IMG/VR virus record: IMGVR_UViG_2617270985_000008
Length of the DNA stretch: 20,058 nt
Source: a virus
Lineage: Duplodnaviria > Heunggongvirae > Uroviricota > Caudoviricetes
Strand: one strand, 5' to 3'
The notes beneath the pieces were generated by a model that did not search any database, was not told where the DNA came from, and was given only the letters and a program-made list of their open reading frames with translations. Shown in pieces: positions 2,893 to 19,051 of the stretch. The translations under genes were made by a program, and so were the position numbers. Every line of letters begins with the position of its first letter. The stretch's first letter is position 1.

Positions 2893-4032
2893 TCAGCTGC
2901 AAATTTCGTTGTTGCTGCATGTTATCTCTTCAAGTGCAGCGGCGTTATAATCAACGGAATGATCAACCTGTGATGTAGGTCTGCCAAAAAATTCAACCCC
3001 TGACATAATCATGTTGCCGATATTCTCTCGCTGTTTATCACTGAGCCTGTCCCACCACTCAGGGGATGAATATGTATTTTCGGCCTTTGTGAAGAAAAAA
3101 TACAGAAGGGTATTGAACATCCTGTTAGCTGGGATCTTAATTAGTGTCCGTATAAAACGTCTGATAATTGTTGAAGTTCTCAGCCAACTGAACACTACAT
3201 ATCCCTTACCTCCGCAGGAAAAAGCATTGAAACATACTTGTTCCGCCGACACTGTAAGATCGCTCAAATCCTGAATTTTGGTCCCATCGAAATCCCTCTC
3301 CGGTGAAAGAATTGACGAAACTACAATTGGTAAAGGCTCTGCAAAAGTGAAGATAACACTTTCAATTTCTGAAAATTGCCTGCTAAGTAGGATGCGGTCG
3401 AGGCTAGTTTTAAGATTATTTAATTCAATTATTGCTGCATTTAAGCCACTTTGGTGCTGGTCGATTAATTTCTGAATATAATACTGTTCAACTTGTAGCT
3501 TTCCTTTATCGGCATTTTTAGCAAAATCAGAAGATAGCACTCCCCCTTCTTTGGCATAAATTTCTTTAGACAATGAACGAAACATTAAGGCAAAGCACTG
3601 CTCGTCCGTGCCTGTAAATTTTTCGTTCTCTAGGCATGAAAATAAGATTCTGTCATGAACTGCACAAAATCCTGTAAAAGTGGATGCCTGATTGATACCG
3701 ATCTTCTCGGGAAGCCATTTTCCGTTGTTTCTCATCAGGCTTGCTAAGTTCATTATCACCCCCATGACGTGATTGCTGGAGTCGGCGATCGCCTTAAGGC
3801 TACTGCTCTTAGATATCGTATGCGCCTGAACGATGCGTTTATCACAATCTTCGTGCATGGATGCTGGCGCATAACATGCCTTTCTCTGCGAGAGAGACTT
3901 TGAAAATTTCAGTGCCTCGGCTTTGGATACCGGAGTTTCACGATCTCGACCAAGATGGCACTTTTTATACTTAAGTCCTGAATTACACCAGCACTTATCA
4001 TTTCTTCCTAATTTCACTTTATTGTTTCCCAC
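2893..4032 (-). CDS. Hypothetical protein with N-terminal SEC-C zinc-binding motif (prophage cargo)
   Basis: 379-aa ORF in a markedly AT-rich segment between D and ogr. The N-terminus KLGRNDKCWCNSGLKYKKCH resembles the SecA C-terminal SEC-C metal-binding motif. No Walker A or other catalytic motif recognised. Start is GTG at 4032 (or GTG at 4017); no in-frame ATG before the motif. Confidence 0.7.
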   Translation of the reverse strand: MGNNKVKLGRNDKCWCNSGLKYKKCHLGRDRETPVSKAEALKFSKSLSQRKACYAPASMHEDCDKRIVQAHTISKSSSLKAIADSSNHVMGVIMNLASLMRNNGKWLPEKIGINQASTFTGFCAVHDRILFSCLENEKFTGTDEQCFALMFRSLSKEIYAKEGGVLSSDFAKNADKGKLQVEQYYIQKLIDQHQSGLNAAIIELNNLKTSLDRILLSRQFSEIESVIFTFAEPLPIVVSSILSPERDFDGTKIQDLSDLTVSAEQVCFNAFSCGGKGYVVFSWLRTSTIIRRFIRTLIKIPANRMFNTLLYFFFTKAENTYSSPEWWDRLSDKQRENIGNMIMSGVEFFGRPTSQVDHSVDYNAAALEEITCSNNEICS

Positions 4033-11370: not shown

Positions 11371-11421
11371 CTCTTAACCTTATAATATGTGTGGTCTGAA
11401 ATAATAATTAAGGAGATTATC

Positions 11422-11994
11422 GTGCTGTCTTACTTAATGGCAATTCACTTTGTTTTATTTGGGGACTCTACTAATTTAAAAAACTTCTGGAAATATGAAG
11501 TAATTCGGCGGAAACGTATGGATATCTGGAGGCTTTTAAGAGAGAAAAAACAGCGTAACCGGAATTTCCTTTTCTGGTGGCGGTTGGCTAACGAAATGTA
11601 TATTAATGGTAATAAATTACATAAGAAAGCAGCCAAAAAGTTAAACAGTAAAATAATTAACAAATTTGGTTGTGAAATTGGATTGGGCGCAAATATTGGA
11701 AAAGGGTTAACAATTCCCCATCATGCTGGAATTGTTGTTCATTTTGCTGTTGATGCTGGTGAAAATCTGGTGTTACGACAGAATACTACCATTGGACAGA
11801 TAGATGGTGACATGCCTGGTTCAAGAGTAAAAATTGGTAGTAACGTTGATATCGGAGCTAATTGTTGCATCATTGGATTATCACGTAAAATTGGGGATAA
11901 TGTAAAAATAGGTGCAATGTCTTTTATAAATAAAGATATACCATCGAACTGCACATATATAACTAAAAAGAGCGGTGTTGTATTGTATAAATAG
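11422..11994 (+). CDS. Hexapeptide-repeat (left-handed beta-helix) acetyltransferase, serine acetyltransferase/WcaB-like
   Basis: AT-rich ORF; C-terminal half has hexapeptide repeats (IGANIGKGLTIPHHAGIVV…IGSNVDIGANCCIIG…IGDNVKIGAMSFI). Start set at GTG 11422 with AAGGAG 6 nt upstream; the track ORF begins at 11389 without an RBS. Confidence 0.8.
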   Translation: MLSYLMAIHFVLFGDSTNLKNFWKYEVIRRKRMDIWRLLREKKQRNRNFLFWWRLANEMYINGNKLHKKAAKKLNSKIINKFGCEIGLGANIGKGLTIPHHAGIVVHFAVDAGENLVLRQNTTIGQIDGDMPGSRVKIGSNVDIGANCCIIGLSRKIGDNVKIGAMSFINKDIPSNCTYITKKSGVVLYK

Positions 11995-13978: not shown

Positions 13979-14509
13979 TTAATCGTCCGGATAAATGGTA
14001 ATAACTTCACCGTCATGAGTTGCCGCCGCTGCAAAAATATCCCCCGGAATTTCCTGAATGATATTCAGCCCTGTCATGTGGCGGCTGACCGGACGGGCAT
14101 CAGCAATCAACCGCTCCATTTCCAGATACATTTCCTCCGTCACGCCACTGTCCAGTGTGCCGACTTCAACGGTAAATGTTCCCGGTTCTCCGCCGAACTC
14201 CCACCACTCAGACACGCGAATGAGGTATCCCAGCGGCTCAATGGCCCTGCGCAGTGCGCTGATGGTCCCTTTGTGTCGGTGTATCAGCCATGCATCACGA
14301 ATCACCTGTCGTTTTGTCTCTTCCGGCCAGTTGCGATCCCAGCGGTCAACGGAAAATGCCCAGGCGAGATAAGGCAGCAGGTGCACCGGGCAGGTGTCCG
14401 GCGACCACAGCGTGTTGAGGTCTACCGGGATGTCTGTAATGCGCGTTCCGACAGCTTCGGCACAACGCATGAAACTGCTGGCTGATGGTGGTAACAGTGA
14501 ATTACTCAT
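13979..14509 (-). CDS. I: Baseplate protein gpI-like
   Basis: 176 aa from ATG 14509 (MSNSLLPP…), overlapping the J stop in an ATGAGTAA arrangement; motifs WSPDTCP..LLPYLAWAFSVDRWD…GYLI…EWWE…PGTF…EMERLIADA…SRH match gpI. The track ORF starts 11 codons earlier. Confidence 0.85.
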   Translation of the reverse strand: MSNSLLPPSASSFMRCAEAVGTRITDIPVDLNTLWSPDTCPVHLLPYLAWAFSVDRWDRNWPEETKRQVIRDAWLIHRHKGTISALRRAIEPLGYLIRVSEWWEFGGEPGTFTVEVGTLDSGVTEEMYLEMERLIADARPVSRHMTGLNIIQEIPGDIFAAAATHDGEVITIYPDD

Positions 14510-15257
14510 TGCGCCCACCTTCGCTGATGGTGAACGACTCACAGCGCGCCGCCTGTATGTCGCTGATGGCCATATTCTGTGTGGGTTCGATTATCTCCAC
14601 GCGTTGCACACCGTGCACATGCAGTGCGGCAGCAATGGCGGACAACGCCACGTCCTGACCGATAAGCCCCTGCTCAGCCAGCCACTTCCTGAACGACGAT
14701 TCAGCCGCCGCCAGAATAGGTTCGGATTCCGGGCCGGGGTAAAAGTACAGTTTTGCATTCAGCCGCCATGTCACGATTCTGGCGCTCTGTACCGTCAGGC
14801 GGTCGGCCACCGGGCGGGTATCCTCTGCATTCAGAACGGCGCGAACGGTATTAAGCAACGCCTCCGTTGCTGTGCCGTCGCCTTCAGTGGACAGGATGGA
14901 AACCGTCACATTTGCCGGAGACGGACTGATAGCCCGCGCATCACGCACCAGACCGCTGGCGCTGCGGGCAAAATACTCGTATGCACCTGACGGGCCAGCA
15001 ACACTCAGGCCATCGTACGCCCGCTGCGCCCGCAGTCTCAGCGAGGTGTCACTTTCCATCACTGCGTCGGTGGTATCCGTTGCCGGAGTGATGGTCAGGC
15101 GCTTTGTGTTCATATTGCCCGCGAGGTTGTCCAGGTCTGTCCCGGCGCTGTGGCTTAACATGCAGGCGCGTGCCCCCTCATTGACCCGCTGGCGTAACGA
15201 GCGTTTCACGGTTATGGAGTTCTGATGAGCAGAAAAAATAAAAAAGTGCGCATGAGT
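14502..15257 (-). pseudogene. J: Baseplate assembly protein gpJ, 5'-truncated remnant
   Basis: Translation (…RQRVNEGARA…MESDTSLRLRAQRAYDGLSVAG…RPVADRLTVQSA…YFYPGPESEPI…HVHGVQRVE…) matches roughly the C-terminal 220 aa of gpJ. Homology stops near 15210-15250, where the opposite-strand Q start abuts; about 85 N-terminal codons are missing. Confidence 0.75.
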
Positions 15258-15959
15258 TCACGCATTGATCTCGCTGATGCGCTCAGGAAAGAATCATCGC
15301 TCAGTGCATTCACATTTGATGGTCCTTATCGCCTGACCGGGCATGACCTGCTGGACAATATGTACTGTGCTGATAACGGGCGGTGGTATGAAACCCCGGT
15401 GGACTGGTACGGTCTGGCAAGAGCCGCCCGGCAAACGTCCTGGCATCAGTCTGCGCTTTACTTTAAGCGCAATGTATTGCTCGGTTGCTACATCCCGCAC
15501 CCGCTGCTTTCCCGGCAGGATTTCTCGGCGCTGGCGCTGGACTGGTTTGTGTTCGGTAACGCATTCCTTGAGCTTCGAAGCAATATGCTCGGCGAACCGC
15601 TTAAATTACGGCACGCCCTGGCGAAATACATGCGACGCGGAAGCGATCTTGAATCATGGTGGTATGTGCAGGATGGCAAGGATGCGTTTCAGTTTCGCCC
15701 AGGCAAAGTGTGCCACCTGATGAATCCGGACATTAACCAGGAAATCTACGGCATGCCGGAATATCTCGGCGCATTACTCTCGGCCAGCCTGTCTCATTCG
15801 GCGGACATGTTCAGAAAACTGTATTACGACAACGGATCCCACGCCGGGTGCATCATCTACATCGGTGCAGCGCAGGTAAACCGCGAAAGCATGGACTCCC
15901 TGAAAGAAACGCTACAGGGTGCGCGTGGTGGTGGTGCGTTTCACGTCCTCTGGAGGTGA
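15225..15959 (+). pseudogene. Q: Portal protein gpQ, 3'-truncated remnant
   Basis: 244-aa ORF with portal motifs (…NGRWYE…YFKRNVL…IPHPLLS.QDF…FGNAFLE…DINQEIYGMPEYL…YYDNGSHAG…) corresponding to roughly the N-terminal 70% of a P2-type portal; ends in unrelated sequence. Confidence 0.75.
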
Positions 15960-16076
15960 AACGAACGACAGGAAAATGCTTAATTGCCATTACGCCTCCT
16001 TGGTGTGTGTGAATACCTCTGCGAATGCAGATTGTGTTCACATTTTTTTATTTAAGCTGGGGTTTTATTTATGCGG

Positions 16077-16190
16077 TTATTCGCCAGTGAAAAAGCGTTC
16101 AATCTTTTTTACTGAATTAATAATTCGCATAATACCAATTGCACAAACTACCGAAATAATAAGAACAATCCAGGATATAAATATACTCAT
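16077..16190 (-). CDS. Putative 37-aa hydrophobic membrane peptide
   Basis: Not in the ORF track. ATG overlaps the stop of the upstream 80-aa gene (ATGA coupling). Translation MSIFISWIVLIISVVCAIGIMRIINSVKKIERFFTGE has one TM helix and a basic C-terminus. Confidence 0.35.
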   Translation of the reverse strand: MSIFISWIVLIISVVCAIGIMRIINSVKKIERFFTGE

Positions 16191-16429
16191 GCGATATTTC
16201 CCAGTTTGTACGGCTCAATATGCTCCCCGCATTCTGCGGCGCAGATAAGCTCAGAAAGTTCATTAAGTGCATCCAGATCGTCAGCGTAAAAAGCTACGTC
16301 ATACAGACTCCGGATAGCCCTGGTCAATGAGTCACGGGCTGCACGTTCTGAATGAGCGCCGGATGCGCTTAAACGAAAATAAAAACGCTCAAGTGCTTTG
16401 TTGATGAGAGTTTTATATTCTTTATCCAT
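16187..16429 (-). CDS. Hypothetical prophage early-region protein (80 aa)
   Basis: Tightly packed in the leftward early operon; no recognisable motif. Confidence 0.5.
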   Translation of the reverse strand: MDKEYKTLINKALERFYFRLSASGAHSERAARDSLTRAIRSLYDVAFYADDLDALNELSELICAAECGEHIEPYKLGNIA

Positions 16430-17528: not shown

Positions 17529-17570
17529 AGTGGTATATTGTGATCATCTAATAGCTCGTGAAATCATTTT

Positions 17571-17588
17571 GGTATCAAAAAAGATACC
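17571..17588. promoter_or_regulatory. Candidate operator: perfect inverted repeat GGTATC-AAAAAA-GATACC in the divergent control region
   Basis: Lies in the 75-bp interval between the RHH and repressor start codons; a further GGTATA half-site at 17532-17537 and a TGATCA palindrome at 17541-17546. Confidence 0.4.
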
Positions 17589-17603
17589 TGTAAAGGTTTT
17601 TGT

Positions 17604-18008
17604 ATGAAAAATGATATTGGTCAGCGGTTGCGTGAGGAAAGGGAAAGATTGGGACTTAGTCAAGTTGCCATGAGCGACATTGGTGGAGTCAAAAAGCTAA
17701 CTCAGCTTAGATATGAGAAAGGAGATAGCTTTCCTGATGCTGCGTATTTGGCAGCGCTGTCTCGTTTTGGCCTTGATGTTCAGTATGTTGTGTTGGGAAT
17801 TCACTCACCTGAAACTTATAACGATGATGAGCAGGAGTTGATTACTCGCTTTCGAGCAGCTTCGTTAGATGTGAAAAACGCGGTGATCGGGGCTTTAAAA
17901 GGTGCGATCAGTGAAAAGGAAACTCAGCCATCAGGACGTGAGTTAAATATTTCTGGTGGTAATAACCGTATCGCTGGTCGTGACTATAACGAAACTAAGG
18001 GTAGGTGA
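17604..18008 (+). CDS. XRE-family helix-turn-helix repressor (P2 C / CI-like immunity repressor)
   Basis: 134 aa; N-terminal IGQRLREERERLGLSQVAMSD…YEKG is a canonical HTH_XRE; first gene of the operon ending in int, as in P2 (C-int). The C-terminus carries the GGNNRIAGRDYNE motif. Confidence 0.75.
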   Translation: MKNDIGQRLREERERLGLSQVAMSDIGGVKKLTQLRYEKGDSFPDAAYLAALSRFGLDVQYVVLGIHSPETYNDDEQELITRFRAASLDVKNAVIGALKGAISEKETQPSGRELNISGGNNRIAGRDYNETKGR

Positions 18009-18023: not shown

Positions 18024-18674
18024 ATGGCCGTCAACTCAAACGGTTCAAACAATCGCGTTGCTGGGCGTGATTTTCACGAAAAGAAAATTCAGATAGAGCG
18101 ATATGATGGTTCTCATACCGTCAATATCGCAATCCCTTCGAATAATGATGATGACGATCGCCCTTTGCTTAAGGCTCAGCGTAAGGAGCTAAATAGCTTG
18201 GTTGCTGCTATTGCAGAAGCTAGCAATACTGAAGCGTTTATTATTTGGCAAAAAGTACATGCGGAGATTGGTGTAGCTGGTATTGATGATATGACAGTAA
18301 ATCAATATAAAACAGCGGAGAGTTTTCTGCATGCAATGCTTGAGCGATGTAAAGATCATGATGCCTGTAAGACTCTTGTAAGTTTATTACTACGTAACAG
18401 TGAAGACTGTGGACTTCGACAAAAACTTCTGCGGTATTGCCATATCAATTTCGGTACAGGACGTTTAAACGATCTTACTCGTTCTCAGTTACAGTCTGCA
18501 TTGTCGTGGTTAGAGCAACAATCGGCATCAAGTCACACAGAGAGTTCGGCCTTACCAGAAGTTCGACTTCGTGCTTCAGAATTAATCCGACTTTATCCAA
18601 AAGAAATAATATTCTTTATCTGCGTAGGGGTTTTGGTAGGCGGTGCCATTTCTAGGGTGTTTTTTAATTTGTAA
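18024..18674 (+). CDS. Hypothetical tail-anchored membrane protein (216 aa) sharing an N-terminal motif with the repressor C-terminus
   Basis: Strong SD GGGAGG 4 nt before the ATG; N-terminus NGSNNRVAGRDFHE repeats the repressor C-terminal motif; C-terminal TM helix IIFFICVGVLVGGAI. Same reading frame as the repressor, separated by TGA-TAG-TAG. Confidence 0.6.
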   Translation: MAVNSNGSNNRVAGRDFHEKKIQIERYDGSHTVNIAIPSNNDDDDRPLLKAQRKELNSLVAAIAEASNTEAFIIWQKVHAEIGVAGIDDMTVNQYKTAESFLHAMLERCKDHDACKTLVSLLLRNSEDCGLRQKLLRYCHINFGTGRLNDLTRSQLQSALSWLEQQSASSHTESSALPEVRLRASELIRLYPKEIIFFICVGVLVGGAISRVFFNL

Positions 18675-18703
18675 TCTTACTTGAGCTAAATTGAGGTAAT
18701 GAT

Positions 18704-19051
18704 ATGAAAGTAAAAAAGGTTCAACTATTAGTTACTTTTTTATCTATGTTTTCTTTTTCCGCCGTCGCAATGCCTTTTAAAACTATTGAACGTGAGAGTT
18801 TCAATGGGGTATGGCCATTTAATACTGATGAGGTTCAATTACAGTGTCTTGATGGTAATCCTTATGTGATGAATTTTGACGATAATAAGTTATATGCGCT
18901 TACAGGTTTAGCTCGAATAAAAGGTAAAACATTTGGTGCGTTACCGTTAGATAACAATAATCCATTTTGGCTAGATAATGATGCCGCCCCAGGGTTAAAA
19001 AAGAGTCTGGGGGATGTCACTAAGGCTGCATTTGATTTATGTGATAAGTAA
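18704..19051 (+). CDS. Hypothetical secreted/periplasmic protein (115 aa, signal peptide)
   Basis: MKVKKVQLLVTFLSMFSFSAVA signal peptide; mature protein with two Cys (possible disulfide); SD GAGG 7 nt upstream; AT-rich. Confidence 0.6.
   Translation: MKVKKVQLLVTFLSMFSFSAVAMPFKTIERESFNGVWPFNTDEVQLQCLDGNPYVMNFDDNKLYALTGLARIKGKTFGALPLDNNNPFWLDNDAAPGLKKSLGDVTKAAFDLCDK

Follow-up and report, generated by a model that had tools for sequence, protein, structure and literature searches.

A 37-codon gene overlapping the DUF4754 gene in the early operon of P88-type prophages is conserved and predicted to encode a single-helix membrane protein

A reading frame of 37 codons in the early operon of a P2-family prophage is, judging from its conservation among related loci, a genuine conserved gene, whose start codon overlaps the stop codon of an upstream DUF4754 gene and whose product is predicted to be a small protein of the inner membrane. 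The window in which it lies is the whole 20,058-nt stretch of DNA analysed here (IMG/VR virus record IMGVR_UViG_2617270985_000008). In the explanation that we favour, with moderate confidence, the product is an accessory inner-membrane protein of the early lytic phase of P88-like prophages, which would be made together with the DUF4754 protein, work with it and be directed at the host. The ORF is not new, as it is already present in public annotation; what is added is modest and comprises the selection acting on the gene, its conservation above that of its partner, the inseparable pairing of the two genes, and the recognition that its place at the end of the operon is an artefact of a deletion. 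The gene, the predicted parts of its product and its junction with the upstream gene are located as follows:

16077..16190, minus strand: gene for the 37-aa small membrane protein (ATG at 16190..16188, TAA at 16079..16077)
16128..16184, minus strand: predicted transmembrane helix, codons 3-21 (Kyte-Doolittle mean and AlphaFold2)
16080..16127, minus strand: positively charged amphipathic tail, predicted to be cytoplasmic, codons 22-37 (charge and hydrophobic moment)
16187..16190, minus strand: ATGA start/stop overlap (plus-strand TCAT), two bases being common to the start ATG and the stop TGA
16187..16429, minus strand: upstream 80-aa DUF4754 gene (Pfam PF15946, E = 7.5e-54)
16199..16202, minus strand: GGGA within the last DUF4754 codons, a putative weak Shine-Dalgarno-like site

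The translation of the ORF is MSIFISWIVLIISVVCAIGIMRIINSVKKIERFFTGE. Residues 3-21 form a hydrophobic core, whose Kyte-Doolittle mean reaches 2.84 in the best 19-residue stretch; no other of the 84 ATG-started ORFs of 30-70 aa, counted over all six frames of the window, exceeds 2.3. Over residues 22-37 the net charge is +2 and the helical hydrophobic moment is significant, which marks an amphipathic helix, and an AlphaFold2 model built from a nine-sequence alignment consists of one unbroken helix over residues 2-35 (pLDDT 88.6). Hydropathy, charge and the modelled helix thus bear out the single transmembrane helix and basic tail that the first-pass annotation had described. The N-terminus is an uncharged Met-Ser and the positive charges come after the helix in every lineage, a distribution from which the positive-inside rule would predict that the N-terminus faces out and the C-terminus in. 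The net charge of the tail is +1 to +3 in all lineages, and its hydrophobic moment is significant in most of them. A lipoprotein or secreted peptide was also considered and was rejected because the 37-aa peptide has no lipobox and no charged signal-peptide n-region, and because Cys16, which is preceded by V-V, is replaced by M, F or Y in relatives.

The conserved positions of the membrane span (S6, W7, L10, S/A13, A17, G19 and I24) share one helical face, and the observed moment of this clustering was reached by 3.2% of shuffles. Such one-sided conservation suggests the pattern typical of specific helix-helix packing. In the tail, the motif K-x-I-E-x-[FL]-F-[TS]-[GD]-[ED] is invariant among distant relatives and survives in lineages whose DUF4754 protein is barely recognisable. 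With under 50 residues and a single predicted transmembrane helix, the peptide would fall within the definition of small accessory membrane proteins. AcrZ, MgtS, CydX and KdpF are bacterial single-helix small proteins that serve as accessory subunits or regulators of membrane complexes. The peptide resembles them in size and in having one transmembrane helix, and its conserved face suggests helix-helix packing; unlike them it is encoded by a phage, and it has no homology to them.

An ATGA overlap with the upstream 80-aa gene, and translational coupling through it, had been proposed from the window alone. The overlap is indeed present and is kept in relatives: it was found in all 7 sequences of one comparison (the window and 6 divergent loci) and in 14 of 14 divergent viral loci. 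When the conserved DNA of the peptide gene itself was used to search IMG/VR, 120 contigs were obtained, 118 of them evaluable, with ATGA in 116 loci and GTGA in 1. The DUF4754 gene ends in the overlap in 117 of these 118 loci, the sole exception being cut by the contig end. The same pairing occurs in plasmid records, and among the loci examined the peptide was never seen without its DUF4754 partner. Moreover, the ATGA overlap is retained even though DUF4754 identity falls to 32-40%, and the last DUF4754 codons vary by lineage (…NIA, …ELA, …GET, …VAA, …EEA) while the junction is always NCATGA. Retention of the overlap in every related locus examined supports translational coupling at the level of sequence. 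Where the window has the weak GGGA, divergent lineages have a strong GAGGAG or AGGAGG inside the DUF4754 end; since the window's lineage has only the weak site, expression there probably leans more on re-initiation.

One related locus (L093) combines an E. coli-type DUF4754 gene, close to the window's, with a divergent 41-aa peptide allele, which indicates that the peptide and DUF4754 do not co-vary allele for allele. Comparison of L093:3762-4126 with a second locus (L092) and the window places a recombination boundary at or near the gene junction. The constant adjacency could simply reflect the difficulty of separating two overlapping genes. AlphaFold2 models DUF4754 with confidence (pLDDT 88.6) as a bundle of three helices, with a C-terminal tail in extended form. 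A Foldseek comparison of this fold with the PDB returned only non-significant helical-bundle matches, none at E <= 0.001, and as no significant structural neighbour was found, the fold does not point to a function. 'DUF4754' proteins of 103-128 aa, mostly single-member clusters from Logan and ENA assemblies, were considered as natural fusions with the peptide and rejected as frameshifted read-throughs or upstream-start products. Another DUF4754 gene, 98% identical to that of E. coli, lies on a 226-kb contig labelled Vagococcus sp. WN89Y (NZ_JBQPOM010000071.1), and this Gram-positive label looks like assembly contamination or mislabelling.

The ORF is intact in about 215 related loci. In all 85 loci retrieved through DUF4754, an open frame of 30-45 aa runs from the overlap, with the full 37 aa in 80 of them, and a 41-aa version is present in 14 of 14 divergent viral loci; a DUF4754 search of genome contigs gave two loci only. 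The membrane span is intact in every locus used, phage 503458 having been set aside and left out of the evidence as an unannotated record with frameshifts in both DUF4754 and the peptide gene. Because ORF, frame and overlap are conserved in every related locus examined, the feature is far beyond chance, and the presence of stop codons in relatives, suggested by the first-pass annotation as a possible refutation, was decided in favour of the gene. In an exhaustive HMMER search of 1.84 billion cluster representatives, only ten clusters matched, and four of them are full-length relatives with 54-78% identity. These four keep M1, S6, W7, L10, A17, G19, I24, I30, E31 and F34, as well as the tail motif I-E-x-[FL]-F-T-G-[DE].

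Across the four lineages compared, pN is 0.20-0.27 versus a pS of 0.48-0.79. The summed pN/pS of 0.37 for the peptide frame is the lowest of the six frames, and this frame is the sole sense-strand frame without stops. Synonymous sites are near saturation while the amino-acid sequence of the peptide stays conserved; by these substitution data, the peptide ORF is under purifying selection. An antisense ORF of 109 aa (15919..16248, plus strand), which covers the whole peptide gene, was rejected as a gene: it starts in a portal remnant, has a stop in one relative and a pN/pS of 0.56, and is an artefact of AT-rich hydrophobic codons on the other strand. Identities to the window's copies, compared over three divergent lineages for the peptide and four for the other genes, are as follows:

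Peptide: 54-68%
DUF4754: 32-40%
Next downstream gene: 21-34%
DUF4761: 60-73%

The peptide is therefore better conserved than both of its flanking genes. In the weakest blastn match among the E. coli genomes, only the peptide end of the query was aligned (5-117 of 353). The tail is frameshifted or truncated in 5 of the 85 loci, at an A7 run, at a T5 run or by a stop codon, so that its constraint is not absolute. The isolated phage Chuche has only 30 aa of the peptide, cut short at codon 31, and the conserved tail is therefore likely to be non-essential for growth. The A7 and T5 runs lie in codons 27-37 (16080..16110) and are the source of most tail variants (45-aa and 30-aa products), which may represent real slippage or assembly error.

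Further features concern the operon to which the pair belongs and the place where it is interrupted:

17566..17594, minus strand: the sole sigma-70-like promoter match upstream of the six-gene block, presumed to be Pe (consensus match)
17604..18008, plus strand: divergent helix-turn-helix repressor gene, faced by the presumed Pe
16018..16031, minus strand: hairpin or palindrome of 5 bp within the spacer that follows the peptide gene, conserved in divergent relatives
15937..15991, minus strand: remnant of the next early gene, its first 18 codons, bounded by the deletion junction 15936/15937
15225..15959, plus strand: portal remnant, truncated after about 240 of 344 profile positions

Six tightly packed leftward genes, with spacers of 10-21 nt, encode in order an Arc-like protein of 68 aa, a Cox-like protein of 67 aa, DUF4761 (116 aa), a 92-aa phrog_3800 protein, DUF4754 (80 aa) and the 37-aa peptide, so that the pair makes up genes 5 and 6. 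A consensus scan, which weak promoters could escape, revealed on either strand of the block no promoter-like site besides that at 17566..17594, and none near 16077..16190, and no Rfam RNA matched the peptide locus at E <= 1. The peptide gene precedes a spacer of 85-110 nt, the widest interval between genes in the operon's front part. On the operon strand the hairpin in this spacer reads TCTGC ATTC GCAGA followed by GG, and relatives have TCCGC NNNN GCGGA GG within a surrounding spacer that has diverged; the window's copy shows one compensatory change from C:G to U:A. As no U-run follows, it is not a classical terminator; a role in the processing or stability of the RNA, or as a site where a protein binds, is conceivable.

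The first-pass annotation placed the gene at the end of the early operon, a position that does not hold in intact relatives. In an O26 prophage, in phage P88 and in more distant relatives, the operon continues through several small genes to the replication gene A. In E. coli O26:H11 strain 11368, which is 99.8% identical here, a 67-aa gene comes next after the peptide gene, and several more small genes lead on to gene A, which encodes the replication endonuclease. The window ceases to match the intact prophage at 15937, 18 codons into the next early gene. The deletion at 15936/15937 cuts the operon 140 bp downstream of the peptide gene, removes gene A and everything between, and fuses the next early gene to the portal gene; the peptide gene is thus last in the window only as a result of prophage decay. 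The junction was not found in 5426 complete E. coli genomes or in IMG/VR contigs.

The window starts with pgsA and the tRNA genes glyW, cysT and leuZ, and the remainder is a P88-type P2-family prophage (genus Xuanwuvirus, family Peduoviridae). Over the tail genes it is 97% identical to phage P88, and a suspected inversion of tail genes was rejected since P88 has the same arrangement in a single collinear match. At the right end are the divergent repressor gene, two cargo genes and the integrase gene. The two cargo genes (18024..19051, plus strand, in the interval between repressor and integrase) encode a protein of 216 aa that partly resembles Flk and a protein with DUF2511, and both are probably expressed in the lysogen because they are co-oriented with the repressor. 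Tail gene D and the tRNA genes are separated by a 379-aa ORF (2893..4032, minus strand) that looks like a further cargo gene; a SEC-C zinc motif at its N-terminus is its only recognisable domain and the sole basis of weak PADLOC matches to E2-like models. In addition, a 201-aa hexapeptide-repeat O-acetyltransferase similar to EpsC, CysE and WcaB is encoded at 11389..11994 (plus strand), with tail gene U on one side and the gene for tail-fibre assembly on the other; P2-like phages have their Z/fun cargo slot at this position, and the gene may therefore be one for lysogenic conversion. The baseplate J gene within 14502..15225 encodes only 235 aa, covers Pfam Baseplate_J positions 112-255 only and directly adjoins the beginning of the portal gene. 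The genes for the capsid and for lysis and most of those for the baseplate (P2 genes P to W) were apparently lost in a second deletion, which together with the junction at 15936/15937 would make the prophage doubly defective.

The peptide is already known to public annotation under several names: WP_000021647.1, hypothetical protein (RefSeq), AIZ95115.1, 'membrane protein' (P88, KP063541), and 'Prophage membrane protein' (UniRef). The remark that the frame was too short for the ORF track is accordingly right for the track of the first-pass annotation but does not extend to the NCBI pipeline, which annotates WP_000021647.1. These orthologues are identical or about 92% identical to the window's peptide (92% for the P88 copy), lie in the same position after DUF4754 and have the same 4-base overlap; both by sequence and by its DUF4754/ATGA placement, the window's peptide belongs to the P88-type 'prophage membrane protein' cluster. 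In the intact phages with annotated orthologues the operon continues downstream, whereas that of the window is cut by the deletion. The exact peptide sequence occurs on at least 1000 contigs and falls in a 118-member 90% cluster, and of 5426 complete E. coli genomes, 1377 have the gene pair, among them strains of O26, O157:H7 and O127:H6. Relatives bear the names of Escherichia, Shigella, Salmonella and Citrobacter phages, and the peptide family is confined to one phage lineage in Escherichia and its close relatives. Searches of Pfam, PHROGs, NCBIfam, PADLOC and PDB sequences gave no significant match for the peptide or its relatives, and within the library of papers searched there was none on the 37-aa peptide and none of relevance on DUF4754.

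A possible course of events in an intact P88-like prophage would begin with the lifting of the repressor, upon which the operon would be transcribed from the early promoter near 17566..17594. Ribosomes ending the 80-aa DUF4754 frame would restart on the overlapping ATG, so that both products may be made together. The 37-aa product would then enter the inner membrane as a single helix, with its two-residue N-terminus in the periplasm and its tail in the cytoplasm, and the conserved helical face and the tail motif (K-x-I-E-x-F-F-T-G-E) may serve as a binding surface. Most likely, the peptide would tether the soluble DUF4754 bundle to the membrane and/or contact a host inner-membrane protein. It is possible that the peptide is a host-directed membrane effector. 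In the window, the gene is presumably silent under an intact repressor in a defective prophage.

By analogy of position and timing, the function may be a non-essential, host-directed one comparable to that of fil and dhr of phage 186, which encode an inhibitor of cell division and an inhibitor of host DNA replication, respectively, and are small, overlapping, non-essential genes of a P2-family early operon. The slot of these two genes, lying between the switch genes and the spacer ahead of the replication block, matches that of the peptide gene as a positional analogy only, and in 186 the terminator tR1 then follows. A tblastn search of the phage collection at E <= 10 gave no match in 186 or P2 and no homology to Fil or Dhr. 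The best 19-residue hydropathy means are 1.26 for Fil and 0.49 for Dhr, compared with 2.84 for the peptide, and the early operons of P2 and 186 contain no small ORF of comparable hydrophobicity. A holin or pinholin was rejected because there is no Pfam or PHROG holin match and the gene lies in the early operon, not in the late lysis region.

Other explanations of the gene differ in how well they agree with these data. It is highly improbable that the ORF does not function as a peptide and is either a chance ORF or kept for the expression of downstream early genes through translation, RNA or DNA. Its shortness, the frameshifts tolerated in the tail of 5 of 85 loci and the conserved hairpin just downstream would agree with this, but amino acids are conserved while synonymous sites approach saturation, the peptide outdoes both flanking genes in conservation, the conserved residues lie on one helical face and in a tail motif, and its hydropathy is unique among window ORFs of its size class; the substitution pattern largely refutes such a non-peptide role. 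Given more weight, though still unlikely, is a membrane-damaging toxin of the type I or GhoT kind with DUF4754 as its antidote, the pair forming a toxin-antitoxin or abortive-infection-like module. That small membrane peptides encoded in early regions of phages can be host inhibitors or toxins had been pointed out in the first-pass annotation. Type I toxins (Hok/Gef, TisB, Ldr, Ibs, ShoB) and the type V toxin GhoT have fewer than 60 aa, a hydrophobic helix and a charged end. The peptide shares with them its size, its single hydrophobic helix, its charged C-terminus and a predicted inner-membrane location; moreover, antitoxin and toxin genes are usually arranged in this way, with an ATGA overlap between the upstream and the downstream gene, and the peptide-DUF4754 pair is inseparable. 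However, no toxin model of Pfam, NCBIfam or PADLOC was matched, neither partner has a significant match to a toxin or antitoxin in these collections, and for the type I models (Hok/Gef, Ldr, Ibs, TisB, ShoB, DinQ, ZorO) neither the peptide nor its relatives gave a Pfam or NCBIfam match below E = 0.06. There is also no promoter-like site on the opposite strand, no Rfam antisense RNA and no promoter of its own, and the alleles of the two genes are shuffled in L093. Type I toxins are translationally silenced, whereas the peptide gene is translationally coupled within a phage operon. A classical type I toxin locus is unlikely because no model match, antisense RNA or own promoter was found. An autonomous toxin-antitoxin operon (type II, or type V as in GhoST) was rejected, as the pair lies inside a repressed block of six genes with 10-21 nt spacers and one promoter-like site.

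About as doubtful as the toxin is an early factor for superinfection exclusion or anti-defence, which, while the phage grows lytically, would keep the DNA of a second phage out of the cell or disable a host defence bound to the membrane. Imm and Sp of phage T4 are early membrane exclusion proteins and provide a precedent, and the predicted inner-membrane location, the early timing and the restriction of the family to one phage lineage in Escherichia and close relatives are all in line with such a role. Exclusion genes of temperate phages, on the other hand, are normally expressed from the lysogen, whereas the peptide gene belongs to a repressed lytic operon, and known exclusion or defence-related proteins show no homology to it. 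An accessory early-lytic membrane protein that works with DUF4754 remains the preferred reading; a bolder one, which is less probable, can be put forward tentatively. Here the peptide, and not DUF4754, would be the conserved core of a two-protein early module, an effector that binds and switches off a specific inner-membrane machine of the host, such as one for division, transport, proteolysis or membrane-bound defence.

As it stands, the gene is an ordinary hypothetical phage gene, already listed in databases, and its product belongs to a well-known class, the small membrane proteins that phages encode. Annotation often misses small membrane proteins, and few of them have been characterised; this one occurs in about 25% of complete E. 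coli genomes without being a member of any family in Pfam, PHROG or NCBIfam. Should the peptide be the core effector, it would establish a new family of small proteins, with a host target that is also new. If a membrane function of the host is indeed targeted, the peptide may provide a compact tool and a new example, from the P2 family, of how phages take over their hosts.
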